In this document: positions 2,471-36,558 of the stretch, piece by piece
Position numbering within the stretch: the first letter of the stretch is position 1
How the letters are laid out: each line of letters begins with the position of its first letter
Virus record (IMG/VR): IMGVR_UViG_2859180793_000001
Span: 66,529-107,860 of that record
Length of the DNA stretch: 41,332 nucleotides
Reading direction: 5' to 3' (one strand)
From: a virus
Taxonomy: Duplodnaviria; Heunggongvirae; Uroviricota; Caudoviricetes
Notes under the pieces: generated by a model
Seen by the model: only the letters and a program-made list of their open reading frames with translations
Told to the model about the DNA's origin: nothing
The model's database searches: none
Made by a program: the position numbers and the translations under genes

Positions 2471-2490
2471 AATAGTCAGCACTGACTATT
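2471..2490. promoter_or_regulatory. Palindromic operator copy 1 (AATAGTCAGCACTGACTATT)
   Basis: Perfect 9-bp inverted arms; intergenic; core AGTCA-N4-TGACT recurs ten times in the window. Confidence 0.8.
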
Positions 2491-2522
2491 AACAAACCTC
2501 TTTGCAAAGGAGTTTCTCTCGC

Positions 2523-3395
2523 ATGGCAAGTAACACCAAGAACGTGAAGCTGGGTGTTTGCAAGGCGATCTTTGGCGGCTACGACTTGGGTTACACCAAG
2601 GGTGGCGTGGATGTGACCGTCAAGACCGACACCCACAAGGTCAACGTCGACCAGTTCGGCAAGACCGCGATCAACGAATACATCATGGGCCGAGAATGCA
2701 CGGCCAAGGTGCCGATGGCGGAAACGACCATCGAAAACCTCGTGGCCATCATGCCTGGTGCCACGCTGCAAACCGTGGGCGGCGCTGTCGCCACGGGCAC
2801 GGTGCAGATCGCAACCAACCCGAGCACGAACGACACGGTGGTCATCAACGGCGCCGAGTTCGTGTTCAAGACCCAGGCCACCGGCCCGTTCGAAGTCACG
2901 CTGGGCGCAACGGCCGCAGGCACTGCCGCAGCGCTTGCCGCCGCGCTGAACGCCTCGACCGACCCGCGCGTGTCGACGGCGACCTACTCGGCAGCCGGTG
3001 CGATCGTCACGGCAACCTACGGCCCGCGCATCATCTACGGAGACGCCGGCCAGAAGGGCGCGGAAGGCAACAGCTTCACGCTGGGCGCTGGCACCGCAGG
3101 CGCGAAGGTCACGCTGTCGGGCGCAACCCTGGGCGGCGGCCAAGACCCGACCAGCAAGAGCGTGAACGTGTCCTCGGGCATCGGCACCGACCTGCTGGCC
3201 GGCGCCAAGGAGCTGCGCTTCCACCCGGTCGGCAAGCCTGACAGCGACCGCTCGGAAGACTTCGTGATTCCGCTGGCCAACACCGCAGGCGCGCTGAACT
3301 TCGCCTACAAGCTGGAAGACGAGCGCGTCTACAACGTGGACTTCACCGGCTACCCGGACCCGTTCACCGGCCGCCTCTTCTCGGTCGGAACGTAA
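2523..3395 (+). CDS. Major tail tube protein with an inserted domain
   Basis: ATG at 2523 after an AAGGAG RBS; N-terminal DLGYTKGGVDVTV typical of siphophage tube proteins; precedes chaperones and tape measure. Confidence 0.75.
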   Translation: MASNTKNVKLGVCKAIFGGYDLGYTKGGVDVTVKTDTHKVNVDQFGKTAINEYIMGRECTAKVPMAETTIENLVAIMPGATLQTVGGAVATGTVQIATNPSTNDTVVINGAEFVFKTQATGPFEVTLGATAAGTAAALAAALNASTDPRVSTATYSAAGAIVTATYGPRIIYGDAGQKGAEGNSFTLGAGTAGAKVTLSGATLGGGQDPTSKSVNVSSGIGTDLLAGAKELRFHPVGKPDSDRSEDFVIPLANTAGALNFAYKLEDERVYNVDFTGYPDPFTGRLFSVGT

Positions 3396-3413
3396 TAGTC
3401 ACCATTGACTATT
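3394..3413. promoter_or_regulatory. Palindromic operator copy 2 (AATAGTCACCATTGACTATT)
   Basis: Core AGTCA-CCAT-TGACT at 3397-3410, overlapping the tube gene stop codon. Confidence 0.8.
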
Positions 3414-3434
3414 CAAAAAAACTGAACTGACCCA

Positions 3435-3457
3435 AGCCCCCGCCGCGAGCGGGGGCT
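3435..3457 (+). other. GC-rich RNA hairpin after the tail tube gene
   Basis: AGCCCCCGC-cgcga-GCGGGGGCT, perfect 9-bp stem with no U-tract. May stabilise the tube mRNA 3' end or act as a weak terminator. Confidence 0.45.
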
Positions 3458-3476
3458 GCCTCAAGGAACAACCGAA

Positions 3477-3800
3477 ATGGCCAAGATCCTCAATCTCGAC
3501 AAGCTGTCCAGCAACGACGAGCGTGAACTGAACATCGGCGGCAACGCTTATCCCGTCAAGCCCATGTCGGTGGAGGACTTCATCGAAACAACCCTCACGG
3601 CAGAGCGCCTGGAGGGCGAGAAGAGCATCGCCAAACAGATTCAGGCCACCGTGAAGCTCATCAAGCGCTCGGTGCCCACCATCGACGAGCAGACCCTGCT
3701 GCAACTGAGCCTGGAGCAGCTGCGAGCCGTCACCGCATTCGTCCGTGGGGAAGACCCCGCCGACATTGTGGAGGAGCGGGAGGCTGGCTCGGGAAACTGA
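3477..3800 (+). CDS. Tail assembly chaperone (lambda gpG-like)
   Basis: 107 aa between tube and tape measure; ends in the slippery heptamer G GGA AAC (3791-3797) right before TGA. Confidence 0.75.
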   Translation: MAKILNLDKLSSNDERELNIGGNAYPVKPMSVEDFIETTLTAERLEGEKSIAKQIQATVKLIKRSVPTIDEQTLLQLSLEQLRAVTAFVRGEDPADIVEEREAGSGN

Positions 3801-4132
3801 GCGAGGGCAGGTCCACACAGGAACTCGACTTCGGGTTCCTGTTTTGTCGGGTCTGCCACTTCTACTCCCTGAGCGACGACGCCGTGCTCGCCATGCCACT
3901 GAAGCGGTTCTGGCTGATGAGCAACAACATCAACCGCCTGATGGCCGAGCGCGACATGCGATCGCTGTCCGTCGCCGGCAGCGCGCAGAGCGGCGAAGGC
4001 TTCGCTGAATACCGCCAGCAACTGATTCTGGAGATCGGCACCGTGTTGCGCGACGACCCTCTGTCGACCGAGCGTGACCAGGCTGGTTTCGAGGAGCTGC
4101 GAGCAATGGCAGCCGAGCAAGTGGCTGCCTGA
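3791..4132 (+). CDS. Tail assembly chaperone extension (gpT-like), read by -1 frameshift
   Basis: The -1 frame is open from the slippery site (GKLSEGRSTQELDFGFLFCRVCHFY...) to TGA at 4130-4132 and includes track ORF 3884..4132. Confidence 0.7.
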   Translation, partial: GKLSEGRSTQELDFGFLFCRVCHFYSLSDDAVLAMPLKRFWLMSNNINRLMAERDMRSLSVAGSAQSGEGFAEYRQQLILEIGTVLRDDPLSTERDQAGFEELRAMAAEQVAA

Positions 4133-4158
4133 ACCCCAAGACGAACTGAGGAATAGCA

Positions 4159-7100
4159 ATGACTGGCGGTGATATTCGCGTCGTAATGACGTTGGATGAC
4201 AAGGACTTCTCGATCAAGACGACGCGGGCGACCGCGATCGTCGACGACATGAAGAAGTCCTTGGAGCAAACCGCCAATTCGGCCCAGACGCTTGAGAATC
4301 ACTTCACAAGCCTGGGCCGGAAGTTCCACGACACCATCTTCACCGTGTCCCTGATGCGCTTTGCATTCCGGGACATTCAGGACATTTTCGGCGCCATCCC
4401 TTCCGCGATCATCAAGACGAACGCGGAGATGGAGCGCATGAAGACCATGCTGACCGGCCTGACCGGCAGCACCAAGAAGGCCGAGGACGACTTCAAGTCG
4501 ATCTTCAACATCGCCCAGAACGCGCCGACCTCGGTTTCGGCCATCACTGACGTGTTCGTCAAGTTCCGTTCGGTGGGTCTGGACCCCGCAAACGGGAGCG
4601 TGAAGTCGCTGATCGATGGTCTCGCGAAGTTCGGGGGCACGTCGGAGCAGCTCAAGCGCGCCGCCATCGGTATTCAGCAGATGGTCGGTAAGGGCGTCGT
4701 CTCGATGGAAGAACTGCGTCAGCAGGTCGGTGAAGCATTGCCGAACGCGATGCAGGCAATGGCGACCGGTCTGAACATGACCATGAGCCAGCTGGCGGCC
4801 GCCGTGAAGAAGGGCACGCTGGAGTCCAAGGACGCGCTCGACCGCATGTTCACGGTGATGCGCCTTCAGAATCAGGGCGCCTCGGACGAGATGATGAAGA
4901 CGTGGGCCGGCCTGGTCGCCAAGCTGGAGACCCGCTGGACGCTCTTCAAGGACGCGATCGGCAAGCAGGGCATGTTCGACACTGCCAAGGAGGAGCTGAA
5001 CAAGCTCGTCGACGCCTTCGGCAGCCGCGCCATGAACGACCTCGCTATGACGGTCGGCTCGGCCCTCGCATCGGCGACCACGGCGCTTGTGAGCCTCAAG
5101 GAGACCGTCACCGAGTATTGGGGCGAGATCAAGATCGCCGGCGAGCTGATGCTCTACTACTTCGCCGGCGGCCGCGTGATGGCCGGCTTGGAGGCAATGA
5201 AGGCGCAGATGGGCGGCCTGATGGCCTCCTACAAGGCGAATGTCGCCGCCAAGACGCTCGCGTGGGAGGTCGAGCAGGCACAGATCCGCGCCACGATGGC
5301 GGCGAAGGCCGAGCAACTGAGCCAGGAGATCGCGCTCAACGGGCGGGCCGTCGCGCTGGAGCGGGAAAAGAACGCCGCCGCTGCGACCGCAGCTGTTGCC
5401 AAGATGGAGGCAGAGCGCCAGGCAAACGCTGTGCGCATCACCGAGCTGGCCGGCACGTTGCGCGAGATGGAGGCGATGGAGTCCGAATACCGGATGAAGC
5501 GCATCGCCGCCGAGCTGGAGGCAGAGCGTCTGCTGCGTGCGAAGAAGGCCGGCACGGCAGCCGAGGCCCGCGCCATGACCGCGCAGGCGGACAAGCTGGG
5601 CGGTTCCGAAGCCATCATCGCGGCAGAAGCGCAGGCACAGCGCACCTCGATCGAGGCGCTGAAGGCCAAGAACATCGAAATCGAGAAAAACATCGTCCTC
5701 ACCAAGGCGCAGGGCGCCGCGCTGACGACGAATCAGCAGGCTCTGCTGGCCGAGAATGCCGCGCTGCTGGCTGCCAAGCGTGAGACCGAGATGGCGTCCG
5801 CCGCCGTCAAGGAGATGACGCTCGCCCAGAAGTCGCTGAACGCGGTGATCGCCGGCGGCCAGATGCTGTGGACCGCGCTGGGCGGCTGGGTGGGCCTCGT
5901 GACGGTCGCCGTCACGGCGGGCATCTACGCCTGGATGAACTACAAGACCGCCGCCGAGAAGGCGATGGAGGCTGCCAAGCGCGCACGTGACGCCGAACGC
6001 GGCATTGCCTCCGACGACCAGCGCAAGGAAACCGAGAAGGAAATCTCGAACCTGAAGGAGACGGTCGCCCGCATGAAGGCCGACAAGGCCAACGGCGGCG
6101 AGCAGATCATGGGTGCCGAGGGCGTCATTGGCGTGCGCCAGTGGACCGCCAAGGACGATGCCGAGCTGCGCAAGGTCGAGGACCAGCTCAAGCAGGCCAT
6201 CAACACCCACAGCCAGCAGCTCAAGAACATCCTGGAGGCCAACGGCAACGACCAGGCTGATGCCTATCGCCGCTCGCAGGAGCGCCAGAAGGAGGAGTTC
6301 AACCGCTCGCTGACGAGCAAGTGGGCCGCGCTCAAGGAAGCGTATGACGCCGACGTGCAGCAGGCGGGCCAGAACTCGGCCAAGCAGAAAGCCGCCGGCG
6401 AGAAGTATCTGAAGGCGCAGCAGGAGCTGCTGGGCGACACGGAAGCGAAGAACCTGGAGTTCGCGACCAAGTGGCGCTCCGACACCACTGCCAAGCTGCA
6501 AGCTCTGGTGGCGGTTGAGGGCCAGCGCGCCCTGACGGATCAGGAGAAGATCGAGAAGGACGGGCTCGAAAAGCGGCAGAAGCAGCTGACCGAGGAAATC
6601 CGCGACATGACGACGACTCAGGCGCAGCGTCTCGCGCACCTGAAGGATGCGGCCGTCACGATCGACAACAAGAACAAGGGCACGCACAAGATGGAGCACG
6701 AGAACCCGCTCGTGCGCGCCCTGGAGCAAGAACAGGCCCAATTGGAGGCCGCCAAGGTCAAGCTCGAAGCCCTGATCAATGAGACGCGGGGGTATGAGCA
6801 GTTCAAGTCGTCCGCCATGTTTAAGGTGCTCGGCGAGGTGGCGTCTGGCAAGTTCGACACGGCCAACCGAGATGCCGACGGCAAGGTCACGAGCACCAAC
6901 AAGTTTGGCGGCTCGTCCGAGGCTCGCCAGAAATACATTGAGCAGCTCTCCGACTGGCTGAAGAAGGGCAAGGGCACCGCCGACGAGTTCATCGCCTCGC
7001 TGAAGACGATGGACGAGCAGGACAAGAAGACCGTCCTGAAGATGGCGGACCTGCAAGCGCAGCAAGGCCAGGTCGCGGAAATGTCGAAGGCGCTGGCCGA

Positions 7101-8487
7101 CGCACGTCAGCGCGAAGCAGCGACGCTGGCCGAACTGGACGCCGCCACCACGAACTACATGACCCGTGGCATGGCGAAGGAAACCAGCGGCATGCAGTCG
7201 CTGATGAAGCACTTCGCCCAGGTCGAGGAGAAGCTCAAGGCCGGCACCAAGGAGTTCGAGGAATACCGCCTGACCAAGCAGCGCGCGCTGGCCAACCAGG
7301 CGCTCGCGGACAGCCGCAATTATGCCGCCGACGCCGAGAAGGAGCTGCGCGACGCCAAGCTGAAGTCGATCGCTGTGGTGTCCGAGCGCCAGGCGGCCGA
7401 GTTCTTCCTGGAAAAGCAGCGCATCGAGAACGACTACGCGATCCGCAAGCGCGCGATCGAGAATAACGTCGTGGACGAGATCCAGCGCATCGCCGAGCTG
7501 GATGCCCTGAACGCCGCGCGCGAGACACGCCTGACGGCCGCCACGCTGAACTACGCCCAGACGCGAAAGACTGAACTGCAACGGCTGTCCGAGGAGTGGA
7601 CGGACGTGACGCAGCAGATGAATAAGGCCACGGCGAACTGGTCCAACGGCGTGATCGACGCGATCATGAACTTCGTCAAGACCGGGAAGTTCGAGTGGAA
7701 GAGCATGCTCGAATCCATGCTGACGGACGTGCTGAAGATGCAGATCCAGAACACGTTCGGCTCGCAGATCAACGGCATGATGGCCAAACTTGGAGATGCG
7801 CTCAAGAACGGTTTGCCTGGACTGATGCCGCAGAAGCAGGGCGGTGCAGCGGACGCGGTGAGCGGGGCAGCGACGGAGGCGGCCACCAAGATGACACAAA
7901 GCCTGTTGTCGTCTGCTGCCGCTACCGACACTGCCAAGGTTGCCATGCAGACCATGACAGACAACGGCGTCGCCAAGGCAACGGAGGGTCTGCTCACCAA
8001 CGCGCTGCAAACCAGCATCTCCACGAGCACGGAGGAAATGGCCTCCTCGACTCTGATCGAGTTCGTCTTCGCCGCGCAGGCGGCGACCGAAGCGCTGACA
8101 CAGCTCGCTGCCTCGACCGCTGCTGACAGTGCGGCCTCGTTCTTTGCTGACGGCGGCATCATGTCCTCGGCGGGCAGTCTGCCGCTCAAGATGTATTCGA
8201 ATGGCGGTATCGCGAACAGCCCGCAGCTCGCGGTGTTCGGCGAAGGCCGCATGAACGAAGCCTACGTGCCGCTGCCGGATGGCCGCACCATTCCCGTGAC
8301 CATGACAGGCGGTGGCGGCGGCGTCGGCAACGTGCAGGTGAATGTGATCAACCAGTCCGGCACGCAGGTTGCCGCGAAGCAGGGCGAGCCTCGCTTCGAC
8401 GGTCGTCAGCTGATCCTTGATGTGGTGCTGACGGCGGTAAACCAGCCTGGCAGCTTCCGTGACGGCATGAAAGGAGCCCTGGCATGA
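4159..8487 (+). CDS. Tape measure protein
   Basis: 1442-aa Ala/Lys/Glu-rich helical ORF with an N-terminal tape-measure domain and C-terminal FADGG...NGGIANSPQLAVFGEG...EAYVPL typical of lambda-like TMPs. Confidence 0.92.
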   Translation: MTGGDIRVVMTLDDKDFSIKTTRATAIVDDMKKSLEQTANSAQTLENHFTSLGRKFHDTIFTVSLMRFAFRDIQDIFGAIPSAIIKTNAEMERMKTMLTGLTGSTKKAEDDFKSIFNIAQNAPTSVSAITDVFVKFRSVGLDPANGSVKSLIDGLAKFGGTSEQLKRAAIGIQQMVGKGVVSMEELRQQVGEALPNAMQAMATGLNMTMSQLAAAVKKGTLESKDALDRMFTVMRLQNQGASDEMMKTWAGLVAKLETRWTLFKDAIGKQGMFDTAKEELNKLVDAFGSRAMNDLAMTVGSALASATTALVSLKETVTEYWGEIKIAGELMLYYFAGGRVMAGLEAMKAQMGGLMASYKANVAAKTLAWEVEQAQIRATMAAKAEQLSQEIALNGRAVALEREKNAAAATAAVAKMEAERQANAVRITELAGTLREMEAMESEYRMKRIAAELEAERLLRAKKAGTAAEARAMTAQADKLGGSEAIIAAEAQAQRTSIEALKAKNIEIEKNIVLTKAQGAALTTNQQALLAENAALLAAKRETEMASAAVKEMTLAQKSLNAVIAGGQMLWTALGGWVGLVTVAVTAGIYAWMNYKTAAEKAMEAAKRARDAERGIASDDQRKETEKEISNLKETVARMKADKANGGEQIMGAEGVIGVRQWTAKDDAELRKVEDQLKQAINTHSQQLKNILEANGNDQADAYRRSQERQKEEFNRSLTSKWAALKEAYDADVQQAGQNSAKQKAAGEKYLKAQQELLGDTEAKNLEFATKWRSDTTAKLQALVAVEGQRALTDQEKIEKDGLEKRQKQLTEEIRDMTTTQAQRLAHLKDAAVTIDNKNKGTHKMEHENPLVRALEQEQAQLEAAKVKLEALINETRGYEQFKSSAMFKVLGEVASGKFDTANRDADGKVTSTNKFGGSSEARQKYIEQLSDWLKKGKGTADEFIASLKTMDEQDKKTVLKMADLQAQQGQVAEMSKALADARQREAATLAELDAATTNYMTRGMAKETSGMQSLMKHFAQVEEKLKAGTKEFEEYRLTKQRALANQALADSRNYAADAEKELRDAKLKSIAVVSERQAAEFFLEKQRIENDYAIRKRAIENNVVDEIQRIAELDALNAARETRLTAATLNYAQTRKTELQRLSEEWTDVTQQMNKATANWSNGVIDAIMNFVKTGKFEWKSMLESMLTDVLKMQIQNTFGSQINGMMAKLGDALKNGLPGLMPQKQGGAADAVSGAATEAATKMTQSLLSSAAATDTAKVAMQTMTDNGVAKATEGLLTNALQTSISTSTEEMASSTLIEFVFAAQAATEALTQLAASTAADSAASFFADGGIMSSAGSLPLKMYSNGGIANSPQLAVFGEGRMNEAYVPLPDGRTIPVTMTGGGGGVGNVQVNVINQSGTQVAAKQGEPRFDGRQLILDVVLTAVNQPGSFRDGMKGALA

Positions 8488-8843
8488 CCAACCCTATTTT
8501 TCCGGCTGACCCGAAGCAAGACTCGAAGTATTACGAGGTGGAGCTGGAAGATCCGACGCTGCGCACAAATATGGAGGGCGGGTATGTGGTCACCCGTCCG
8601 AAGCACACCCGCAAGCCACGCCGCACGTTCAAGTCCGGCTGCACCTCCATCACCACCGACCAACGCAAGGTGCTGGAGAACTTCTACGACTTGGTGCGCG
8701 GCGGATCGGTCATCTTCGACTGGACCGATCCCGTCACCGGCACGGTGTTCCAGGTGCGTTTCAAGGAGAAAATTTCCTTCAAATACACCGGTGTCGGCAC
8801 CGCGCAATTGTGGGACGTAACCTTCACGCTTGAGCAGGCATAG
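8484..8843 (+). CDS. Distal tail protein (lambda gpM-like)
   Basis: 119 aa directly after the TMP; FDWTDP motif and ends VTFTLEQA. Confidence 0.7.
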   Translation: MTNPIFPADPKQDSKYYEVELEDPTLRTNMEGGYVVTRPKHTRKPRRTFKSGCTSITTDQRKVLENFYDLVRGGSVIFDWTDPVTGTVFQVRFKEKISFKYTGVGTAQLWDVTFTLEQA

Positions 8844-8856
8844 TCGGCACTCATAC

Positions 8857-8876
8857 AATAGTCAGCAATGACTATT
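8857..8876. promoter_or_regulatory. Palindromic operator copy 3 (AATAGTCAGCAATGACTATT), with possible promoter TAGTCA-N17-TATGAT (8859-8887)
   Basis: Core at 8860-8873; intergenic; TATGAT at 8882-8887. Confidence 0.75.
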
Positions 8877-8895
8877 CATAGTATGATGCCGACCC

Positions 8896-9531
8896 ATGAG
8901 CAAATCCCTCTCGATCGCCACCGTCCTCGAAAAGAACAAGCTGTCTTCGGACACGCCGTTCTTGGTATGCCTGGACATTGCGGTCGCTGACCCAGCCACC
9001 GGCGCCCAGGTCGAGATGCTGCACATCGTGCGCAACACCGAGGCGATCACCTTCAATGGCCAGGTGTATGAGCCGACCGCGTTCGACGTGGAGCTGAAGG
9101 CTGAGTCGGGCCAGCAGCCGACGGTGAACCTGACCATCAAGGACTACAGCAAGGCGATCCAAGGCCGGTTGCAGAGCTACGGCGGGGGCATCGGCTTCGG
9201 CGTGACGCTCTTCGTGGTCAATGCCGGCGCGCTCGATCAGCCTCCCGAGGTGGTCGAGTATTTCGAGGTGGTCGGCGCGCAGTGTGCCAACTACGAAGTC
9301 AGCTTCGTGCTCGGCGCCGACAGCCTGATGGCGGTCGTCTTCCCACGCCGACGCCAGACCCGCGACTTCTGCCAGTGGCGCTACAAAGACCCGAACACCT
9401 GCGGCTACACCGGCGCCGCGCCCACCTGTGACCTGACGCTCTACGGCCAAAACGGCTGCGCGGCGCACGGCAACGTCATCAACTTCGGCGGCTTCCCTGG
9501 CATCAACCAGAACGGCGTCCGCTATGGCTGA
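8896..9531 (+). CDS. Minor tail protein (lambda gpL-like)
   Basis: C-terminal CQWRY...CGY...CD...C cluster like the Fe-S-binding domain of gpL; synteny. Confidence 0.75.
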   Translation: MSKSLSIATVLEKNKLSSDTPFLVCLDIAVADPATGAQVEMLHIVRNTEAITFNGQVYEPTAFDVELKAESGQQPTVNLTIKDYSKAIQGRLQSYGGGIGFGVTLFVVNAGALDQPPEVVEYFEVVGAQCANYEVSFVLGADSLMAVVFPRRRQTRDFCQWRYKDPNTCGYTGAAPTCDLTLYGQNGCAAHGNVINFGGFPGINQNGVRYG

Positions 9532-9919
9532 CGCCAAAACGCCGGACTACCTGGACCTGATCGGCATCCCGTTCGCCTACGGTGGACGCGGCCCCGACAC
9601 GTTCGACTGTTATGGCCTGGTGCGTGAGCTGTATCGCCGCGCTGGCCAGCCCATCCCCGATTACCGAAGCCCGACCGACCTAGCTGTCATCGCCGCAATG
9701 ATGGCGTGCGAAGTTCAGCTCTGGCGCGAGGTGCCGGCCCCCAGGGCCGGTGCCGTTGCGCTGATCCGTGTCGGGCGCCACGCCTCCCATGTCGGCTACT
9801 GCCTGGACGACATGCGAATGATTCACACCTGGGAGCGCACCGGTGGCGTCGTCATTGAACGACTCGACACCTGGAAGCGCCACATCATCGGTTTCTTCGA
9901 GTATGTCGGCCACGTCTGA
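9524..9919 (+). CDS. NlpC/P60 family tail assembly protein (gpK-like)
   Basis: LIGIPFAYGGRGPDTFDCYGLV...HVGYC...IH: NlpC/P60 Cys/His catalytic motifs. Confidence 0.85.
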   Translation: MADAKTPDYLDLIGIPFAYGGRGPDTFDCYGLVRELYRRAGQPIPDYRSPTDLAVIAAMMACEVQLWREVPAPRAGAVALIRVGRHASHVGYCLDDMRMIHTWERTGGVVIERLDTWKRHIIGFFEYVGHV

Positions 9920-14234: not shown

Positions 14235-14240
14235 AACAAC

Positions 14241-14254
14241 AGTCAATATTGACT
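14241..14254. promoter_or_regulatory. Palindromic operator copy 4 (AGTCAATATTGACT), followed by -10-like TACAAT
   Basis: Perfect 14-bp palindrome in the gap between the J-like and spike genes; TACAAT at 14255-14260. Confidence 0.75.
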
Positions 14255-14286
14255 TACAATACCGCCCACATACACGGTGAACCCAC

Positions 14287-15783: not shown

Positions 15784-15786
15784 AAC

Positions 15787-19444: not shown

Positions 19445-19459
19445 GCTGACAGGGCTGCG

Positions 19460-19490
19460 TGCTAGAATGGCAGTCAATACTGACTATAGT
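19460..19490 (+). promoter_or_regulatory. Extended -10 (TGcTAGAAT) plus palindromic operator copy 5 (AGTCAATACTGACT)
   Basis: TG at 19460-19461, TAGAAT at 19463-19468, operator core at 19472-19485, AAGGA RBS before ATG 19502. Confidence 0.75.
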
Positions 19491-19501
19491 GAAGCAAGGA
19501 C

Positions 19502-28097: not shown

Positions 28098-28142
28098 AAT
28101 AGTCAGCGCTGACTTGATATAGAGGATGTTTCACCATAGAAT
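28098..28142 (+). promoter_or_regulatory. Palindromic operator copy 7 overlapping the lysis promoter TTGATA-N17-TAGAAT
   Basis: Core AGTCA-GCGC-TGACT at 28101-28114; -35 at 28114-28119; -10 at 28137-28142. Confidence 0.8.
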
Positions 28143-28184
28143 GCGCCTCTGGCCCTTTGCGAGAGAGCGACGAAGGATAAGGAC

Positions 28185-28538
28185 ATGGAACACGAAGGCA
28201 CCATCATCATGACCAATCGCGCCGCTCTTGAGCAGCAGATGGATGAAGTCCGAAGCGACGTGCGGGAAATGCGCGCGTCGATGGCAAAGATCGCCGAGGC
28301 GATTACGCGCCTGGCAGTCCTCGAAGAACGTCACCTGTCCACCGCCGCGCGCCTCGACAAGATCGAGAGCCGGCAGCGCGACTCCGAGAGCAAGGTCTCG
28401 GAGCTGGACAAGACCCAGATCAAATACATCGCAACCCTCGACGGCATTACCAAGACCGTCCGCATCTTGTGGGTGGTCGGCGGGGCAGGGGTGCTGGCAA
28501 TGATCGCCGGCTACGCTAAACACGCTTTCGGAGTGTAG
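28185..28538 (+). CDS. Membrane protein of the lysis cassette (coiled coil plus C-terminal TM; holin/antiholin-like)
   Basis: Heptad-rich N-terminus and hydrophobic ILWVVGGAGVLAMIAGY; first gene after the lysis promoter. Confidence 0.55.
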   Translation: MEHEGTIIMTNRAALEQQMDEVRSDVREMRASMAKIAEAITRLAVLEERHLSTAARLDKIESRQRDSESKVSELDKTQIKYIATLDGITKTVRILWVVGGAGVLAMIAGYAKHAFGV

Positions 28539-28541
28539 TAA

Positions 28542-28859
28542 ATGCTGACTATGCAGAAAATCCAACGCTGGTTCAAGTCGTTCTTCGACTTCCGTCTGCT
28601 CCTGCTGATCGGTCCAGCCAGCTACATGCTGGCCACCGACATGCCGGTATTCAAGACCCTCCTGTATTCCATCAGCGCCATGCTGCTCATCGTCGGCGTC
28701 GCCCACTGGCTGCGTCAGGTGGTGATGCACTACGTGGAGCTGGGCGACCTGATCGACTCTGCACGCCGTGACCCGATGGCGTCTGCCGTCGTGGTGCTCG
28801 CGGTATGCCTGTTCATGTCGGTGCTGGTCGGCGGCATGATCTGGTGGGTGCGCGGCTGA
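28542..28859 (+). CDS. Putative holin
   Basis: 105 aa with three hydrophobic segments, immediately upstream of the endolysin; alternative start at 28551. Confidence 0.65.
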   Translation: MLTMQKIQRWFKSFFDFRLLLLIGPASYMLATDMPVFKTLLYSISAMLLIVGVAHWLRQVVMHYVELGDLIDSARRDPMASAVVVLAVCLFMSVLVGGMIWWVRG

Positions 28860-29482
28860 TGCTGCCCAACCTGGCGCACCTCTATGTGCCGCTGCTGACG
28901 GCCCAGGTGCTGGCCTTCTGGCCAACCATGCCCGCACCTTCGACGCTGGCCGCTCAGATCGAGCAGGAGACGTGCGTCAGCCTCACCCACGCGAAGTGCT
29001 GGAACCCGAAGGCGGAACTGAAAACGACCCGCGAATACGGGTTCGGCCTTGGGCAGCTCACTGTCACGCCGAAGTTCAATAACTTCGAAGCCGCGAAGAC
29101 CTGGGACAAGTCCCTCGCCAGCTGGAAGTGGGAGCAGCGCTTTGACCCGACCATGCAGCTGCGCGCTCTGGTGATCTATGACCGCAATCTCTACACCGCC
29201 GTAGGGCCTGCCGCGACCGAGATGGATCGACTCGCCTTCATGTTCAGCGCCTACAACGGCGGCCTGGGCGGGGTGAACAAGGATCGCCAGGTCTGCCGTC
29301 ATACGCCAGGCTGCGATCCGGCTCGCTGGTTCGGCCACGTCGAGCAGCACAGCTTCCGCGCGCGCACCGCCGTGCATGGCTACGGCCAGAGCTTCTTCGA
29401 CATTAATCGCGGCTACGTGCGGAACATCCTCTACGTGCGTCGCCAGCGCTACCTGTTTCTGGACCAGAAGGACAGCCGATGA
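28859..29482 (+). CDS. Endolysin, lytic transglycosylase (SLT-like)
   Basis: ATG at 28859 overlaps the upstream TGA; AAQIEQET (catalytic Glu), GFGLGQL and SAYNGG motifs. Confidence 0.85.
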   Translation: MLPNLAHLYVPLLTAQVLAFWPTMPAPSTLAAQIEQETCVSLTHAKCWNPKAELKTTREYGFGLGQLTVTPKFNNFEAAKTWDKSLASWKWEQRFDPTMQLRALVIYDRNLYTAVGPAATEMDRLAFMFSAYNGGLGGVNKDRQVCRHTPGCDPARWFGHVEQHSFRARTAVHGYGQSFFDINRGYVRNILYVRRQRYLFLDQKDSR

Positions 29483-30012
29483 AGAACCTGATGCTCGCGC
29501 TCATCGCCGGCCTGCTGGTCGGCGGGGCGGCAGGCTATTACACGAAGGGCCAGTTCGAAATGGCAAAGGAAGCGACGCAGCTGCGTGCCGACAAGAAGGA
29601 GTCCGCGCGCGGCGTCATCGCATCAACCGCCGCAAACCACGCGCTCGAACAGAAGGTCGATGCCAGCGACAAGGCCGTCACCGCCGTTCAGAAGGCCGTG
29701 GCCAAGCAACTGGCCAAACCTGTGAAGAGGAAAGACGCCCATGAAGAATCCGCTCAGTGCGTGCTGCCTGCTGGCGACGCTGCTTTGCCTTTCACTGTCG
29801 GCACTGTCCGGCTGCTCAACGCCGCCCGCGAAGGGGTCGCTGTGGATGCCGCCGCCGTCGTCGATGGAGAGAGCCAAGCCCCTGCCGACCTTGCGGTTGC
29901 CGAGTTCGTCGACAACGACCTCGAAGTAGTGCGGCTGTATCACGAGCTGGCGGCCAAGCATGATGCCTTGGTCGAGGCAGTGGAAAAGAAGCTCAAGGAG
30001 CAGGCTGAATAA
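29479..30012 (+). CDS. Rz: i-spanin (Rz-like)
   Basis: N-terminal TM followed by a coiled coil; follows the endolysin; contains an embedded lipoprotein gene. Confidence 0.75.
   Translation: MKNLMLALIAGLLVGGAAGYYTKGQFEMAKEATQLRADKKESARGVIASTAANHALEQKVDASDKAVTAVQKAVAKQLAKPVKRKDAHEESAQCVLPAGDAALPFTVGTVRLLNAAREGVAVDAAAVVDGESQAPADLAVAEFVDNDLEVVRLYHELAAKHDALVEAVEKKLKEQAE
29741..29929 (+). CDS. Rz1: o-spanin (Rz1-like lipoprotein) embedded in Rz
   Basis: Signal peptide MKNPLSACCLLATLLCLSLSA, lipobox LSGC, Pro-rich mature part; fully nested in the +1 frame of Rz. Confidence 0.75.
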   Translation: MKNPLSACCLLATLLCLSLSALSGCSTPPAKGSLWMPPPSSMERAKPLPTLRLPSSSTTTSK

Positions 30013-30028
30013 GCCTGCTTTTTCGTTT
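29999..30028 (+). terminator. Intrinsic terminator closing the late/lysis operon
   Basis: AGCAGGCT-gaata-AGCCTGCT 8-bp stem followed by TTTTCGTTT. Confidence 0.75.
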
Positions 30029-30051
30029 ACCCCAACCTACCTTTCCAACCC

Positions 30052-31389
30052 ATGACGGACACGAAGGCCGATCTGAGCCGCTTCATCAGCGTCTACAACG
30101 ACCTGGCAAACTACCCGACGATGTATGACGTGGCAAACGAGCTTGGCATCAGCGTCAAGACCGTGCGCAACAAAGCCGGTTTCCTGCGCACGCTCTCGCG
30201 TGACGACCCCAAGGCACCGAAGGTCATCATGCGTGCGCCCGTCAACGACAACCCCATGTCGGAAGACGCCTCCAAGTTCATGGAGCACTGGGGGCCTGAC
30301 GAGTGCGTGGCGGAGCTGCGCCGCGTGGCCGAGATCGATCCGGAGCGTGTCGTCACCCGGAACCACTTCCGCAACCACAGCGCCATTTCGGAGTCGACCT
30401 GGAACCGCTTCTTCGGCACGTTCGAAGAGTTCAAGCGCCAGGCCGGCATCAAGCTCTCCCGCCAGCAGCACGGCATGGAGCGCAACATCGCCAAACACGC
30501 CAGCGTCGACCACTACCGCCGGATGAACATCGAGCGGCAGGACTGGGCAGACCGCTACGTCCGCGACAACCCGAACCGGTTCAAGACCGTCCTGGTGTGC
30601 TCTGACCTCCACGACATTGAGATTGACCCGTTCTACCTGCGTGTCCTGATTGACACGGCCCGCCGCGTGCAGCCGGACGTGATCTCCCTGGTGGGCGACA
30701 TTTTCGACCTGCCCGAGTTCGGCAAGTATGGCGTCGACCCGCGCGAGTGGGATGTGGTTGGCCGCATCCGCTTCGCCCACGAGCACATCCTGCGGCCGCT
30801 GCGCGAGGCATGCCCCGAGACCCAGATCGACTTCATTGAGGGCAACCACGAGGCGCGTCTGCTGCGTCAGCTGGCAGATGCCACGCCGGCCCTGCGCGCG
30901 GTGCTGTCGGACCTGCACGGCTTCACGGTCGGCAAGCTGCTGGGCCTGGAGCAGTTCGAGATCAACTACATCGCCAAGGCGGACCTGTCTGCCTGGACCA
31001 AGCGCGACTTTGAGAAGGAGTTGGCCAACAACTACAAGGTCTACTTCGACACGTTCCTGTGCCACCACTTTCCGCATGCCCGCAACATGGGGCTGCCTGG
31101 CGTGAATGGCCACCATCACCGGCATCAGGTCTGGAGCGAGTTCAGCCCGATCTACGGCCCCTACGAGTGGCATCAGCTGGGTGCTGGCCACGTGCGCTCG
31201 GCGTCCTACTGCGAAGGAGAGCGCTGGCACAACGGCTTCGCGGTTGTGAACATCGACACGGAGAAGCACAGCACGGCCATCGACTATGTGCCCGTGACGG
31301 ACTTCGCTGTGTCGGGCGGCAAGTGGTATTACCGGGCGCCATCCGAATCGCACGCTTCGGTGCAGGAGCCCATCCTCGTCGCGCGCTGA
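30052..31389 (+). CDS. HTH-fused calcineurin-like metallophosphoesterase
   Basis: N-terminal TMYDVANELGISVKTVRNK helix-turn-helix; SDLH, GDIFD, GNHE and GHHH metal-binding motifs. Confidence 0.8.
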   Translation: MTDTKADLSRFISVYNDLANYPTMYDVANELGISVKTVRNKAGFLRTLSRDDPKAPKVIMRAPVNDNPMSEDASKFMEHWGPDECVAELRRVAEIDPERVVTRNHFRNHSAISESTWNRFFGTFEEFKRQAGIKLSRQQHGMERNIAKHASVDHYRRMNIERQDWADRYVRDNPNRFKTVLVCSDLHDIEIDPFYLRVLIDTARRVQPDVISLVGDIFDLPEFGKYGVDPREWDVVGRIRFAHEHILRPLREACPETQIDFIEGNHEARLLRQLADATPALRAVLSDLHGFTVGKLLGLEQFEINYIAKADLSAWTKRDFEKELANNYKVYFDTFLCHHFPHARNMGLPGVNGHHHRHQVWSEFSPIYGPYEWHQLGAGHVRSASYCEGERWHNGFAVVNIDTEKHSTAIDYVPVTDFAVSGGKWYYRAPSESHASVQEPILVAR

Positions 31390-31405
31390 CCTTTCTTATA
31401 GTTAG

Positions 31406-31427
31406 ATAGTCAGCATTGACTTACAAT
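31406..31427 (+). promoter_or_regulatory. Palindromic operator copy 8 followed by -10-like TACAAT
   Basis: Core AGTCA-GCAT-TGACT at 31408-31421; TACAAT at 31422-31427, the same geometry as copy 4. Confidence 0.75.
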
Positions 31428-31461
31428 GGGGCTTTCCAACCTAATCGACGGGAAGCCCCTC

Positions 31462-32244
31462 ATGGCCCGCAAACACCAGTCGCAGCAAAAGAAGCGCAAC
31501 GCGCGGCGCGCTCAAGACACGCACGAGGGACTGCATCGCCAGGCTGAAGCCTACGAAGCCATGCATCAGCAGAAGGAGCGGATCGACACCCGTCCGATCG
31601 AGCCGCAGAACGACGCCCAGCGTCGCTACATCAACGCCATTTCTCACTTCCAGCTCACCTTCGCAACCGGCCCTGCTGGCACCGGTAAAACCTGGCTGGC
31701 CGCTGCCCTTGCAGCTGCCGCGCTGAAAGACGGTCGCATCGAGAAGGTCATCATCACGCGACCGGCAGTGGAGGCGGGCGAGAATCTGGGCTTCCTGCCT
31801 GGAGAAATCGAGGACAAGTTCGACCCATTCCTCCAGCCATTCAAGGACGTGCTGAACGAGCGCCTGGGCAAGTCCCACGTCGAATACCTGATCCGTGCCG
31901 GCCGCATCGAGGCGGCTCCCCTGGCATACATGCGAGGCCGCACGTTCAAGAACGCCATCGTCATCCTCGACGAGGCGCAGAACACCACCCCGACGCAGAT
32001 GAAGATGTTCCTGACCCGCATCGGGGAGGGCACCAAGGTGATCGTCAACGGCGACCTGGCACAGAAGGACGTGCGAGGCGAGAGCGGGCTCGAAGATGCC
32101 GTGGCCCGCCTGTCGTTCATCCCTGCCGTCAAGCACGTGCGGTTCACCAGCCGCGACATTGTGCGCTCGGGCCTGGTGCAGGAGATCGTCTCGGCCTACG
32201 ACGCCCCGAAGCCTTCCAACGAACCGCTGCCGCTCGCAGCATAA
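31462..32244 (+). CDS. phoH: PhoH family ATPase
   Basis: GPAGTGKT Walker [42 protein letters not shown] and RSGLV are the PhoH signature. Likely start 31462, because ATG 31426 overlaps the -10 element. Confidence 0.93.
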
Positions 32245-32252
32245 GGACTGAC

Positions 32253-32480
32253 ATGGATAACCAACACCGCAAGATCGCCGGCTACCGCGAACTGTCGCAG
32301 GCTGAAATCGACCAGATGAACAGCATCAAGGCGCTCGGCGCACAGGTGGGCGAAGCGATTCAAGCCCTGAAGGCGATGCCGGGTCTGGACCAACGGGCCG
32401 TTGCGATCGGCATGACTGAGATCCAGACGGGCTTCATGTGGCTGATCCGGGGCATCACGCAACCGGCGAGCTTCGCATGA
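32253..32480 (+). CDS. acb2: Acb2-like anti-CBASS cyclic-oligonucleotide sponge
   Basis: [26 protein letters not shown]...[24 protein letters not shown] closely follows Pseudomonas phage Acb2 as recalled ([26 protein letters not shown]...[24 protein letters not shown]), with Y11 and K26 conserved. Confidence 0.85.
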
Positions 32481-32657
32481 TGGACGTGCGGCCGATGGAG
32501 CGCCTGCCGAAGGCGTAACGCAGGACGGGGGCGGGTTCGCTCCCGTGACTTGGGTTCCACAGCGCGGGGTCTTGGGTATCCCGCGCATTCCCGTCAAATA
32601 CAACTACAACAACACAACAATGAACATGTGCAAGTTTGCTTTTACGGAGCCGAGAGG
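32481..32657 (+). ncRNA. Candidate structured intergenic RNA/leader
   Basis: Non-coding gap of about 177 nt with 9-bp hairpins at 32525-32546 and 32562-32586 and an A/C-rich tract at 32596-32625. Confidence 0.35.
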
Positions 32658-33389
32658 ATGACCCAAGCAGTAGCCCAAGAACCCAAGCTCGCGGAATGGT
32701 TCGGCGAGTTCTACGGGCACGACCTTCATTTCCTGCACTGCGAAGTGCTGGCCATCCAGAACATCCCCGCGAAGCTCCTGAAGAAGGAGCCGGAACTGCA
32801 CGCGACGCGCTGGTTCGATTACCGCCGGATGCACCCGACAAAGGCCACCTATCTGTTCTATGCCATGTATGTGCGCGCCTACCGGGACTTCATCACCAAG
32901 ACTCGCGATCGCGGCATGGGCTCGGGCATCCTGCCGTTCAAGGGCGTCAAGGGCGACTTCATGAACGCGAAGGAGAAACAAGCGCTCTGGCGGCTGCGTC
33001 AGGTGGCTGACAGCCTGGGCCTGCGCTACGACTTCTTCCTGCGCTTTGCGATGAACTGGAAGATCGAGCACAACTGGCACCACGTCCCGCGACCGGCCCA
33101 CCTGGCCGCGAACGAGGAGATGCTGGCCGACTGCATGCTCGCGTGGGAGCAGGAGTGCAGGAACAGCCTCCAGCTGTGCAAGGACGAACGCTACCTGGCG
33201 CAGAACTTCTTCGGCCACGCCGACCAGCTCGCCTATGAAGCGTTCATCGTCGGGCAGATCAAGACGCGGGCGCATCCAAAGTATTCGCTGCACGCTGCGC
33301 TCTATACGCACGGTGTGCTGCGCATCGAGGCGGCCCTGACGCACTTCTCGCGGGATCAGGTCGAAGCAGCCCTGTCGCTCGCTGAATAA
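32658..33389 (+). CDS. Hypothetical protein upstream of the replication genes
   Basis: ATG at 32658 after GAGAGG; 243 aa with phage-like codon usage; no family recognised. Confidence 0.7.
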   Translation: MTQAVAQEPKLAEWFGEFYGHDLHFLHCEVLAIQNIPAKLLKKEPELHATRWFDYRRMHPTKATYLFYAMYVRAYRDFITKTRDRGMGSGILPFKGVKGDFMNAKEKQALWRLRQVADSLGLRYDFFLRFAMNWKIEHNWHHVPRPAHLAANEEMLADCMLAWEQECRNSLQLCKDERYLAQNFFGHADQLAYEAFIVGQIKTRAHPKYSLHAALYTHGVLRIEAALTHFSRDQVEAALSLAE

Positions 33390-33393
33390 CATA

Positions 33394-33412
33394 AGTCAAC
33401 ACTGACTATAAT
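33394..33412 (+). promoter_or_regulatory. Palindromic operator copy 9 overlapping a perfect -10 TATAAT
   Basis: Core AGTCA-ACAC-TGACT at 33394-33407; TATAAT at 33407-33412. Confidence 0.75.
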
Positions 33413-33461
33413 GAGTGAGTCGACGCTGAGAGCGTCTTTTGTCCAAATCAGGAGAGATTGC

Positions 33462-33911
33462 ATGTTGTCCACCACCGAAGCAGAACGTCAGGCCCAAATC
33501 GCAGAAGGCGCTCGCTTGGCGCGCAGCGAGGGCGAGTCGTTTGGTAGCTTCACTCGCCGCTCCGGCACGCTGTCCGTGCGCCGCAATCCCGATCGCGCCG
33601 ATCGCGCCGATCGCCCAGTTCGCACCGGCGGCTTTGCCCCGCGTGCCAAGTCGGCTGGCGCCGTGAAAGGGCACGAAGCGTTCCTCAAGGCCCTCGAAAC
33701 ATCTGGCGCCAGTATCACGGTGCTGATGGCCAGCGACGAAGAGCCGATCACCGGCAAGGTCAAGACCTCCGACAAGTTCACGGTGTCGCTGGAGACAGCC
33801 GACGGCACCTGGGTGCTGTTCAAGCACGACATTAGCCGCTTCAAGCCGCTCACGCCGCGCCCTGGCAAGGAAGCCGGCACGGCACAGAGCGCTGACGAGG
33901 ATCAAGCCTGA
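33462..33911 (+). CDS. hfq: Hfq-like Sm-fold RNA-binding protein with an Arg-rich N-terminal extension
   Basis: ATG at 33462 after AGGAGAG. HEAFLKAL...ITGKVKTSDKFTVSL...WVLFKHDISRFKP aligns by eye with Hfq Sm1 (FLNAL...GQIESFDQFVILL) and Sm2 (VYKHAIS). Confidence 0.75.
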   Translation: MLSTTEAERQAQIAEGARLARSEGESFGSFTRRSGTLSVRRNPDRADRADRPVRTGGFAPRAKSAGAVKGHEAFLKALETSGASITVLMASDEEPITGKVKTSDKFTVSLETADGTWVLFKHDISRFKPLTPRPGKEAGTAQSADEDQA

Positions 33912-35338
33912 TGAGCGCAGCGGCCGACATTCCGCGCACGGCGGAAGAATCGGTAGCCGCAATGGTCGGCACCTCCTTCACGGGCGGTGCCGGCTCGCCG
34001 GCTGCCGAACCCGCCGCCGAAGCGCACGAAGTCCCCAAGTTCGAATTCGACGAGGAGTTTCAGACGCGCATTGCCACCCTCGCGGTGCGTGATGGCGAAT
34101 TCATGCGTCGTGCCTCGCACCTGTTGAAGCCGGAATACTTCGAGAACGCTGGCCAGGCCGCGCTGGTGAATATCACGCTGCGCTACCTGAGCAAGTATGG
34201 GCAAATCCCCAGCCTGCCGGCGTTCGCAATGCTGCTCAAGGATGCGCGGGACTCAAAGGCACTGCGGGAAGCCGAAGTGCGCGAATGTGCGGCGCAGCTG
34301 AGGGTCATCAAGGACGCTTCGCTGGCAGACCGCGAATACGTCGAGGACAAGCTCTCGCAGTGGTGCCGCAACCAGGCCGTCAGCCAAGCGATCCTGGATT
34401 CGGTGAGCCTGCTGGAGCGCCAGGAGTTCGGCAAGATCGAGAAGCTGATCAAGACGGCGGTCGACGTTGGCATCAGCGAGGACGGCGAGGAATACGACTT
34501 CTTTGCCAAGATCGAGGAGCGCACGGACGAGCGCCTGGACAAGGCGGCGGGCAAGATGCCGCCGACCGGCGTTACGACCGGCGTGCTCAAGATGGACGAA
34601 ATCCTCTACCACAAGGGCTGGGGCAAGAAGGAACTCACGTCGATCATGGGCGGTGCGAAGGCCGGTAAGACGACCGCGCTGATCAACTTCGCCAAGAACG
34701 CCTCGCTGGCAGGTAAGAACGTGCTCTACGTCACGCTCGAAGTGGCTGCGCGGATCATTGCAGAGCGTCTTGATGCGTCCGTCTCGGACAACCTCATCAA
34801 GGAGCTGGGCAAGAACATCCACGACGTGCGCACCAAGATTGAGGCGTTGCAGAAGCGGGCTGGAAAGCTGCTGTTGCGCGAGTATCCGTCGGGCACGTTC
34901 ACGCCCAACATGCTGCGTGCGCTGCTGGAACGCTACAAGTCGCAAGGCATCGTGTTCGACCTGGTGGTGGTCGACTACGCGGACATTATGGCGCCGAACT
35001 TCCGCTTCAACGACCCGATCGAGAACTCCAAGTCGGTGTATGTGGATCTGCGCGCTATTGCCTTCGAGTTCAACGTGGCGATGCTGACCGCGACGCAGAC
35101 CAACCGTGAAGGCTACAAGTCGACGGTCGCGAAGGCCGAACACGTAGCGGAAGACTTCAACAAGGTCCGCACGGTCGACCTGATGATCTCCATTAACGTC
35201 ACCGAAGAGGAGCGGGCGAAGGGCGAAGCGCGGCTGTATTTCGCAGCCTCGCGTAACCAGGAATCCGGCTTCACCATCTTCATCAAGCAGGACTTGGCCA
35301 AGATGAAGTTCATCGAGTCCATCTTGCGCGTCGAGTAG
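33911..35338 (+). CDS. dnaB: DnaB-like replicative helicase (SF4)
   Basis: GGAKAGKTT Walker A, YVTLE, VVDYAD and TATQTNR motifs. Confidence 0.9.
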   Translation: MSAAADIPRTAEESVAAMVGTSFTGGAGSPAAEPAAEAHEVPKFEFDEEFQTRIATLAVRDGEFMRRASHLLKPEYFENAGQAALVNITLRYLSKYGQIPSLPAFAMLLKDARDSKALREAEVRECAAQLRVIKDASLADREYVEDKLSQWCRNQAVSQAILDSVSLLERQEFGKIEKLIKTAVDVGISEDGEEYDFFAKIEERTDERLDKAAGKMPPTGVTTGVLKMDEILYHKGWGKKELTSIMGGAKAGKTTALINFAKNASLAGKNVLYVTLEVAARIIAERLDASVSDNLIKELGKNIHDVRTKIEALQKRAGKLLLREYPSGTFTPNMLRALLERYKSQGIVFDLVVVDYADIMAPNFRFNDPIENSKSVYVDLRAIAFEFNVAMLTATQTNREGYKSTVAKAEHVAEDFNKVRTVDLMISINVTEEERAKGEARLYFAASRNQESGFTIFIKQDLAKMKFIESILRVE

Positions 35339-35350
35339 CGCAGGCAAGAG

Positions 35351-35375
35351 TGCAGGGGACGGTCTGTCCCCTGCA
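35351..35375. other. Perfect 10-bp inverted repeat between helicase and primase
   Basis: TGCAGGGGAC-ggtct-GTCCCCTGCA, followed by a small GATGC-gta-GCATC hairpin. Confidence 0.45.
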
Positions 35376-35417
35376 TGCGATGCGTAGCATCACAGTATTG
35401 AATCGAAGTGATTGAAC

Positions 35418-36512
35418 ATGGCCGCAAACGAAGAACTGCAAGAGGCGCTTGATACCCTGGACATTGAAGCCTGGCTCGATCAGGAGGGCATCAAGTATCT
35501 CGTCACGCGCGGCGCTCGGGGTCTCCAGCTGAACGTGAAGGAGTGCCCGGTGTGCGGCAACTCCAACTACAAGGTCTACCTCAACGCCGACAGCGGGTTG
35601 GGAAACTGCTTTCATGGCGACTGCGAGGCCAAGTTCAACAAGTGGAGCTTCATCAAGGCCGTCCACAGCACGCTCTCGTCGCGGCAGGTCATCGACCACA
35701 TCAAGCAGGTCGCCAAAGAGCAGGGCTGGCGCCCACCGCGCACGGTCGCGGTCGCCGTCAACATGAACACGGAGTTGGTGCTGCCAGAGTCCGTCGCGCT
35801 GCCTGTGAAAGGCCGCAACCTGCGCTATCTGGACAACCGCAACATCAACGGCACTATCGCCAAGTATTTCAGCCTGCGCTTCTCGCAGCGTGGGGTGTTC
35901 CGCTACAAGGATGCGGAAGGGCACAGCCGGGTTCAGGACTATGCCAACCGCATCATCATCCCGATCTTCGACCTGAAAGGCGACTTGGTGAGCTTTCAGG
36001 GGCGCGACATTACCGGCACGGCCGACAAGAAGTATCTGTTCCCGCCTGGCTTCGCGTCGACCGGCAGCGTGCTCTACAACGGCCAGAACGCGATCGGCGC
36101 CAAGCGCGTGGTGATCGGCGAAGGCGTGTTCGACGTTGCGGCCACCAAGATTGCGCTGGACGGCGACATGGCGCTTCGAGACGTAGTGCCCATCGGCAGC
36201 TTCGGCAAGCACCTGTCGGAAGGCGATGAGAACAGCCAGGTCGCTCGGCTCGTCGAGCTGAAGGCGAAGGGCCTGGAGCAGGTCACGTTTCTCTGGGACG
36301 GCGAGCAGCGAGCGATCGCGGACGCCATCAAGGCGGCGCTCATGCTGCGCAAGTTCGGGTTCGTCGCGCGGGTGGGCATTCTGCCGCCCGACAAAGACCC
36401 CAACGAAGTGCCGGCGGAGGTCGTGCGGCAGGCGTTCTGGCGCGCGGAGGTCATCACGCCTGCGTCGGCCACCAAGCTGATGATCCAGCACAAGCTCAAA
36501 TTTGCCGCTTAA
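35418..36512 (+). CDS. dnaG: DNA primase (Zn finger plus TOPRIM)
   Basis: CPVC...CFHGDC zinc finger; VIGEGVFD, LWDGE and KDPNE TOPRIM motifs; ATG at 35418. Confidence 0.85.
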   Translation: MAANEELQEALDTLDIEAWLDQEGIKYLVTRGARGLQLNVKECPVCGNSNYKVYLNADSGLGNCFHGDCEAKFNKWSFIKAVHSTLSSRQVIDHIKQVAKEQGWRPPRTVAVAVNMNTELVLPESVALPVKGRNLRYLDNRNINGTIAKYFSLRFSQRGVFRYKDAEGHSRVQDYANRIIIPIFDLKGDLVSFQGRDITGTADKKYLFPPGFASTGSVLYNGQNAIGAKRVVIGEGVFDVAATKIALDGDMALRDVVPIGSFGKHLSEGDENSQVARLVELKAKGLEQVTFLWDGEQRAIADAIKAALMLRKFGFVARVGILPPDKDPNEVPAEVVRQAFWRAEVITPASATKLMIQHKLKFAA

Positions 36513-36516
36513 TTCC

Positions 36517-36558
36517 AGTCACGATTGACTTTTAACCCCTGCGTCTGATGCGCAGAAT
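36517..36558 (+). promoter_or_regulatory. Palindromic operator copy 10, with possible promoter TTTTAA-N17-CAGAAT
   Basis: Core AGTCA-CGAT-TGACT at 36517-36530; CAGAAT at 36553-36558, the same geometry as copies 6 and 7. Confidence 0.65.

Follow-up and report, generated by a model that had tools for sequence, protein, structure and literature searches.

A dispersed 14-bp palindrome as the probable operator of a Cro/CI-type master repressor in a Ralstonia prophage

A 14-bp palindrome, AGTCA-N4-TGACT, recurs between the genes of a prophage of the Ralstonia pickettii group and is, at a probability that we put at roughly 80% from sequence comparison, the operator of a prophage master repressor that would silence the lytic operons. 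The window analyzed here (41,332 nucleotides; positions 66,529 to 107,860 of the IMG/VR virus record IMGVR_UViG_2859180793_000001) forms the right end (41 kb) of a virus record of 107,860 bp, and genome positions given below refer to that whole record. The closest relative is a chromosomal Ralstonia pickettii prophage that adjoins tRNA-Cys/Gly and has 86% identity over 102 kb. A sequence-only reading of the window had proposed one dimeric regulator, not clearly encoded there, and a regulator of this kind encoded elsewhere is still the best reading. The candidate is P0001, a 162-aa HTH_3 (Cro/CI, XRE) helix-turn-helix (HTH) protein whose gene adjoins the integrase region beyond the window (genome 2601-3089, minus strand) and whose recognition helix co-varies with the site.

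Ten copies of the palindrome are present in the window, against a mean of 0.03 and a maximum of 1 in shuffled sequences. Allowing one mismatch gives 12 (0.75 expected) and adds only the copies at 28537 and 36607. In the whole 107.9-kb record there are 34 perfect copies and 13 with one mismatch, and AGTCA/TGACT pairs are found at spacer 4 only, with none at spacers 0-3 and 5-11 genome-wide. Coding cores, based on gene calls from our own heuristic of open reading frames (ORFs) and GC3, make up 84% of positions, yet they hold 0/34 perfect (p=1.6e-27) and 0/13 one-mismatch copies (p=6e-11); words with two mismatches show no coding depletion (17/24 coding). Many copies start at most 30 nt from a stop codon. 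Many copies of one site, confined to intergenic DNA, is the arrangement expected of a dispersed operator. The ten positions and spacers listed in the sequence-only reading were all exact, and its observation that no full copy lies inside a gene holds, for coding cores, over the whole genome. The putative operator copies of the window are as follows (window coordinates).

2474-2487, no strand: copy 1 (spacer GCAC), 11 nt downstream of the sigma-70-like GTGACA(2434)-17-TATAGT(2457-2462); precedes the Ig-domain/major tail gene
3397-3410, no strand: copy 2 (CCAT), 1 nt past a stop codon and before a GC-rich inverted repeat, with no promoter on the + strand; candidate roadblock
8860-8873, no strand: copy 3 (GCAA), abuts TTGAGC(8830)-18-TACAAT(8854-8859) and covers the start predicted there; a minor tail gene follows
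14241-14254, no strand: copy 4 (ATAT), in spacer position, with TACAAT at 14255-14260 and a weak -35; follows the central tail fibre J gene
19472-19485, no strand: copy 5 (ATAC), last T common to TATAGT 19485-19490, with TAGAAT at 19463-19468; precedes a fibre/radical-SAM block
23858-23871, no strand: copy 6 (GTGC), last T opens TTGAAT-17-TAGTAT (23871-23899); precedes a tail-fibre assembly gene
28101-28114, no strand: copy 7 (GCGC), last T opens TTGATA-17-TAGAAT (28114-28142); heads the holin/endolysin cassette
28537-28550, no strand: one-mismatch copy (AGTAA half-site) at the junction of two lysis-cassette genes; probable secondary site
31408-31421, no strand: copy 8 (GCAT), followed by TACAAT 31422-31427; precedes a PhoH-like gene
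33394-33407, no strand: copy 9 (ACAC), last T common to TATAAT 33407-33412; heads the DnaB-primase operon
36517-36530, no strand: copy 10 (CGAT), then CCTG(36538-36541)-11 nt-CAGAAT(36553-36558), near the second promoter class described below; its operon leads to DNA ligase
36607-36620, no strand: one-mismatch copy (AATCA half-site) within the opening codons of the following ORF, with the same sequence in the related prophage; either a weak secondary site or a chance match

The gene products of the window include tail and lysis proteins, PhoH, DnaB, primase and ligase, and the copies do precede structural, lysis and replication genes, as had been claimed.

The prophage accounts for 34 of the 35 copies in the 5.4-Mb R. 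pickettii genome, and the single copy in the 5.3 Mb of host DNA is about what chance would give. When the two prophages are compared, the arms of the sites differ at 7/460 positions (1.5%) and the spacers at 27/184 (15%), with 192/1097 differences in the 12-nt flanks; the arms of all ten window copies are unchanged. Base 4 of the half-site accounts for four of the seven arm changes, each a C/A swap, and the spacers show a symmetric R-Y-R-Y pattern. The site is phage-specific and intergenic, and its arms are under selection. Temperate phages can borrow host repressors, and one perfect canonical LexA box is indeed present (genome 52940-52959; L003 14940-14959). Recognition of the palindrome by a LexA-like host regulator is nevertheless extremely improbable, given the lone copy in host DNA, the presence of the same site in Ralstonia, Acinetobacter and Rhizobium elements, and the different dialects of the site in two A. 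baumannii phage-plasmids (see below).

Sigma-70-like elements had been noted beside nine of the window copies, a remark that is broadly correct, though the copies vary. The matches are good for copies 1, 3, 6 and 7; copies 4, 5, 8 and 9 have a good -10 but a weak -35, and copy 10 fits another promoter class. The mean best promoter score at the 34 sites is 8.4, compared to 6.1 +/- 0.4 for locally shuffled flanks. Among 358 sites from dereplicated relatives, a -10 hexamer begins at the last base of the site (+14) in 54 and 23 nt later (+37) in 38, against a background of 2, and these peaks are seen only in the direction of the genes. The site therefore lies in the promoter spacer, next to the -35 or, at window copies 1 and 3, over the start. 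By consensus, a subset of the sites overlaps promoters of lytic operons. Several other copies (e.g., window 3397) are promoterless and follow directly after a stop codon; these may act as transcription roadblocks.

Sites that abut the -35 are centred near -42, which for copies 6 and 7 and for genome 59991 resembles the position of a class II activator, and lambda CI activates PRM from a similar place. The CI-type protein, or a Cro-like partner, could then be a dual switch that also activates such promoters, including those for terminase and lysis. We regard this as very unlikely: the promoters concerned already have near-consensus hexamers, the sites are spread over four or more positions where an activator requires a single fixed one, the P1 site Oc1e with the same geometry is an operator of the C1 repressor, and switching on lysis genes would kill the lysogen.

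A separate, asymmetric element, YCCTR-N11-TAnnnT, was found in relatives with the sigma-70-region-2-like gene (genome 7095-7751 in this prophage). It has 57 matches at spacer 11 against 2-10 at other spacers, and the excess is little or none in relatives that lack the gene. The element is spacing- and direction-specific and occurs at window 36538-36558 (a near match at copy 10) and at genome 3680, 17456, 34989, 42350, and 46320. We infer that it is a candidate promoter class served by the phage sigma-like factor.

The left genome end carries a tyrosine integrase, an excisionase-like HTH protein, an HTH-PAS protein, P0001 and a 70-aa gene, followed by CobT, CobS, the sigma-like gene, and then DnaE. 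P0001 matches Pfam PF01381 (E=8e-9), and its structure model (pLDDT 89.7) has a 434/lambda-like HTH with the recognition helix at residues 58-65 and a helical C-terminal part. No S24 autopeptidase was found, either as a Pfam match or in the all-helical 162-aa model. Fold comparison places it near Stl, restriction-modification controller proteins, 434 Cro, and lambda CI, each with E>0.001. Between the repressor gene and the first rightward gene, in a region with promoter-like elements on both strands, are imperfect sites at genome 3169, 3215 and 3317; one of them overlaps a promoter-like element facing the repressor gene, and two more sites flank the excisionase promoter. P0001 thus shares with lambdoid CI/Cro systems both the HTH domain and a group of operators that lies beside its gene, between divergent promoters. 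The orthologue in phage Cyrano, CYRAN_45, shows expression at 10 times background in an E. coli lysogen and has been listed as a putative repressor; Cyrano is induced by ciprofloxacin (PMC9928086).

As P0001 cannot self-cleave, an antirepressor should be required for induction. The acidic 70-aa gene (L001 3389-3601, outside the window) belongs to no known family, lies between the repressor and cobT, and is conserved across the lineage; by position only it is a candidate for this role. An Atlas search of its protein gave sub-threshold leads only, and homology to Coi was rejected, as the two do not align. The HTH-PAS protein (L001 1745-2386, outside the window), in which a Cro/CI-type HTH is joined to a PAS-like domain, adjoins the excisionase and is a possible small-molecule-sensing regulator; as a general binder of the palindrome it was rejected, since the gene occurs only in Ralstonia relatives.

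Gene order and repressor are common to this prophage, Cyrano, pKpn, pMT1, the Acinetobacter AB group, and Rhizobium RHEph10. With this shared order and homologous CobT/CobS/DnaE, tape measure and repressor genes, the element belongs with the phage-plasmid lineage described as the SSU5 supercommunity, AB and RHEph10-like groups (PMC7969092). These phage-plasmids have the same order of repressor, small gene, CobT, CobS, and DnaE, but the element studied here, like its closest relative, is a chromosomal prophage with an integrase, which in this element is a tyrosine integrase. The repressor is matched by 1048 plasmid records. SSU5 itself (L126, JQ965645.1) lacks the integrase-repressor-small gene block at the usual place (~41.8-42.8 kb) and keeps GTAA-N4-TTAC sites. 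No repressor homologue was found in record JQ965645.1, and SSU5 is probably a deletion derivative.

Relatives were gathered with CobS as bait, because the repressor is too variable for contig scans. Among the dereplicated loci, 69/98 with the repressor have at least two perfect sites, compared to 1/8 without it. In Nickie, hairong, JGB6, and ANB28 neither repressor nor site was found, and five nickie-like contigs have 0 sites.

The relatives use AGTCA-N4-TGACT, AGTAA-N4-TTACT, or a mixture of the two (whole-record counts), and across the family the choice of half-site base 4 is tracked by the residue two positions before the conserved Asn of the recognition helix (-2), which in P0001 is Thr56. 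This was tested with 69 relatives, the first 40 and a further 29 records gathered after the hypothesis was set, leaving out those that had under four sites or a different motif (L108/L148, L180, L111/L154, L173, and L213) and the short fragments L202 and L196. With Lys or Arg at -2, the A-half-site fraction is at most 0.14 in 37/37 records (AGTCA); with Asn it is at least 0.31 in 16/18, a shift towards AGTAA. The A dialect was found in 7/9 of the first 40 records with Asn at -2 vs 2/31 of the others, and in 9/9 vs 3/20 of the second batch (p=2e-5), which was picked after local counts had been seen and so was partly unblinded. On the CobS tree the -2 residue changes ~9 times and the dialect 10 times. 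In tree-corrected regression with two trees, the -2 column ranked first of 521 (p 4e-8 and 7e-11; best rival columns 9e-6 for the sigma-like protein and 2e-6 for CobS), where controls showed the p-values to be inflated, so that only the rank counts. Helix position +4 (Met vs Leu/Phe), occupied by Met62 in P0001, gave a second dialect signal. A confounding effect of GC content was not found (rho -0.11).

The mixed-dialect relatives also bear on whether the palindrome is instead an RNA or single-stranded-DNA hairpin, or a recombination site marking exchangeable modules. The 5-bp stem and 4-nt loop are foldable (mean -4.7 kcal/mol with flanks), and the copies stand at gene-block borders. However, unpaired AGTCA/TTACT sites are at least as numerous as independent half-sites would give (19 vs 10.5 expected; 15 vs 11 expected), the opposite of selection for pairing, which makes a hairpin role unlikely. 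Moreover, the R-Y-R-Y spacers are not tetraloops, the site positions are tied to -10 hexamers in gene direction, and the sites stay orthologous between prophages. Overall we consider both roles highly improbable, and the hairpin reading, like the host-regulator reading, was rejected.

Two types of A. baumannii phage-plasmid differ in dialect, with 23 AGTCA sites in L016 (NZ_CP115646.1) and 13 AGTAA sites in L019 (NZ_CP016296.1), and they are therefore predicted to be heteroimmune. Further dialects are AATCA-N4-TGATT (L108, L148) and ACTAA-N4-TTAGT (L180). In RHEph10 (L007), one AB type (L016), and the V1VFA-S group (L140), a repeated half-site, GTCAGTCA or TAAGTAA, lengthens the site, which suggests overlapping or extended binding.

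Several observations, in addition to the partial unblinding and the inflated p-values, weigh against P0001 as the binder. A strong promoter score (at least 9) is seen at only 12/34 sites, with 4 expected. In the metagenomic relatives L227, L228, L235, and L033 the repressor/integrase block is absent between ligase and cobT and sites are present; the L227/L228/L235 clade, whose fragments are 27-28% complete, still has 6-7 perfect sites, and both L033 and SSU5, without a repressor at the usual place, retain some sites. Eight of the nine sites of L033 are imperfect, which fits decay after loss of the repressor, whereas the sites of L228 (record 28% complete) are intact. The independent-pairs test (Lys/Arg vs Asn; median p=0.125, with 4.5 concordant and 0 discordant) is underpowered at 5-6 pairs; a sign test with 3-6 pairs cannot reach significance. 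Among the exceptions to the residue rule, L063, L064 and the short fragment L196 have Asn at -2 yet mostly C sites, and L066, L007, L134, L156, and L239 lack Asn with an A fraction of at least 0.25. The short fragment L202 has the STPN of this phage and Leu at +4, yet A-type (AA) sites.

The presence of the sigma-like gene also correlates with the sites. At least two perfect sites are found in 65/83 loci with this gene and in 5/23 without it, and the sigma-positive, repressor-less clade of L228 keeps its sites, as would be expected if another family-wide phage protein, such as the sigma-70-region-2-like one, were the binder. The site would then serve control in the lytic phase rather than lysogenic repression. 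Yet the sites are kept where the repressor is present and the sigma-like gene absent, namely in L099, L121, L185, L216, L239, and the enterobacterial SSU5 group (there as GTAA-N4-TTAC), while L192, sigma-positive and repressor-less, has none. The CI helix tracks the dialect far better than any column of the sigma-like protein, and the sigma-like gene goes with YCCTR-N11-TAnnnT instead. From these comparisons, which covered candidate genes near CobS, we find a different phage binder unlikely, and P0001 is preferred.

Known phage systems share parts of this arrangement. The CI-Cro proteins of lambda, 434, and P22 have the same HTH_3 fold, three operators between divergent promoters, and specificity at the start of the recognition helix, but they have six sites and an S24 peptidase domain, where the element here has ~45 sites, no S24 and a different helical C-terminal region. 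The 434 operator is, like the site here, a 14-bp two-fold symmetric sequence with an uncontacted centre. The repressor of Streptomyces phage phiC31 binds conserved inverted repeats dispersed over a temperate genome; these are likewise scattered palindromic repressor sites, although host and site are unrelated.

The likeness to P1 put forward in the sequence-only reading holds for the logic only. As proposed here, one repressor serves many operators over a temperate genome of ~100 kb, and P1 C1 has 22 dispersed asymmetric 17-bp operators (PMC8546580). Oc1d and Oc1e share two of the geometries seen here (in the promoter spacer, or with a base common to the -35), neither C1 nor P0001 has a self-cleavage domain, and a small gene adjoins each. 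C1 and P0001 are, however, not homologous (rejected with hhalign probability 0.2%, E=0.27), the P1 operator is asymmetric where the site here is a 14-bp palindrome, and C1 reaches the late genes through Lpa, whereas here the sites stand directly at head, tail, and lysis operons. The L5/cluster A repressor has more than 20 asymmetric operators and stoperators (PMC9283540), placed, as here, in promoters and in short promoterless intergenic gaps; unlike the two-fold symmetric site and single-HTH protein of this prophage, these are orientation-dependent 13-mers bound by a two-domain monomer. The regulatory principle is thus already known from P1 and L5, while protein family and site differ. We found no account in the literature of the motif, its one-residue switch, or an operator or regulon for SSU5/AB/RHEph10/Ralstonia, although subscription papers were outside our coverage and the novelty is provisional.

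If P0001 is the binder, a dimer, as the symmetry of the site suggests, would bind with one 5-bp half-site per subunit and would occupy ~45 sites in the lysogen. Promoters would be blocked where it fills the -35/-10 spacer, abuts the -35, or covers the start, in operons for excision, replication, head, tail, and lysis alike, and the promoterless copies just past stop codons would possibly be roadblocks to read-through. The weaker sites by its own gene would let the repressor limit its own synthesis. Induction would proceed via an antirepressor, with the conserved acidic 70-aa neighbour as the candidate. From the placement of the sites we infer that the whole lytic programme may be under one regulator.

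Two other genes of the window were noted. A radical SAM protein in the tail module (22486-23856) is bracketed, with its neighbours, by copies 5 and 6, and an ORF overlapping the DnaB start (33411-33911) has a counterpart at the same position in the AB phage-plasmid L016 that is annotated as the RNA chaperone Hfq.

A broader proposal is more tentative. Across the SSU5/AB/RHEph10-related lineage, one conserved XRE repressor might directly silence the lytic genes, acting at promoters and also obstructing elongation as a symmetric roadblock, and might also override the promoter class linked to the phage sigma-like factor (YCCTR-N11-TAnnnT). A single residue at the helix start (Lys/Arg vs Asn) might have switched the dialect ~9-10 times, giving predictable immunity groups, of which the two types of A. 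baumannii phage-plasmid would be an example. Phage-plasmids of the SSU5 type and the AB group are often met in Klebsiella, E. coli, Salmonella, Yersinia, and Acinetobacter. With a named repressor, a 14-bp site and a candidate one-residue rule, both their lysis-lysogeny switch and their superinfection immunity can be tested directly, and the site offers a quick sequence marker to tell temperate from repressor-less members.

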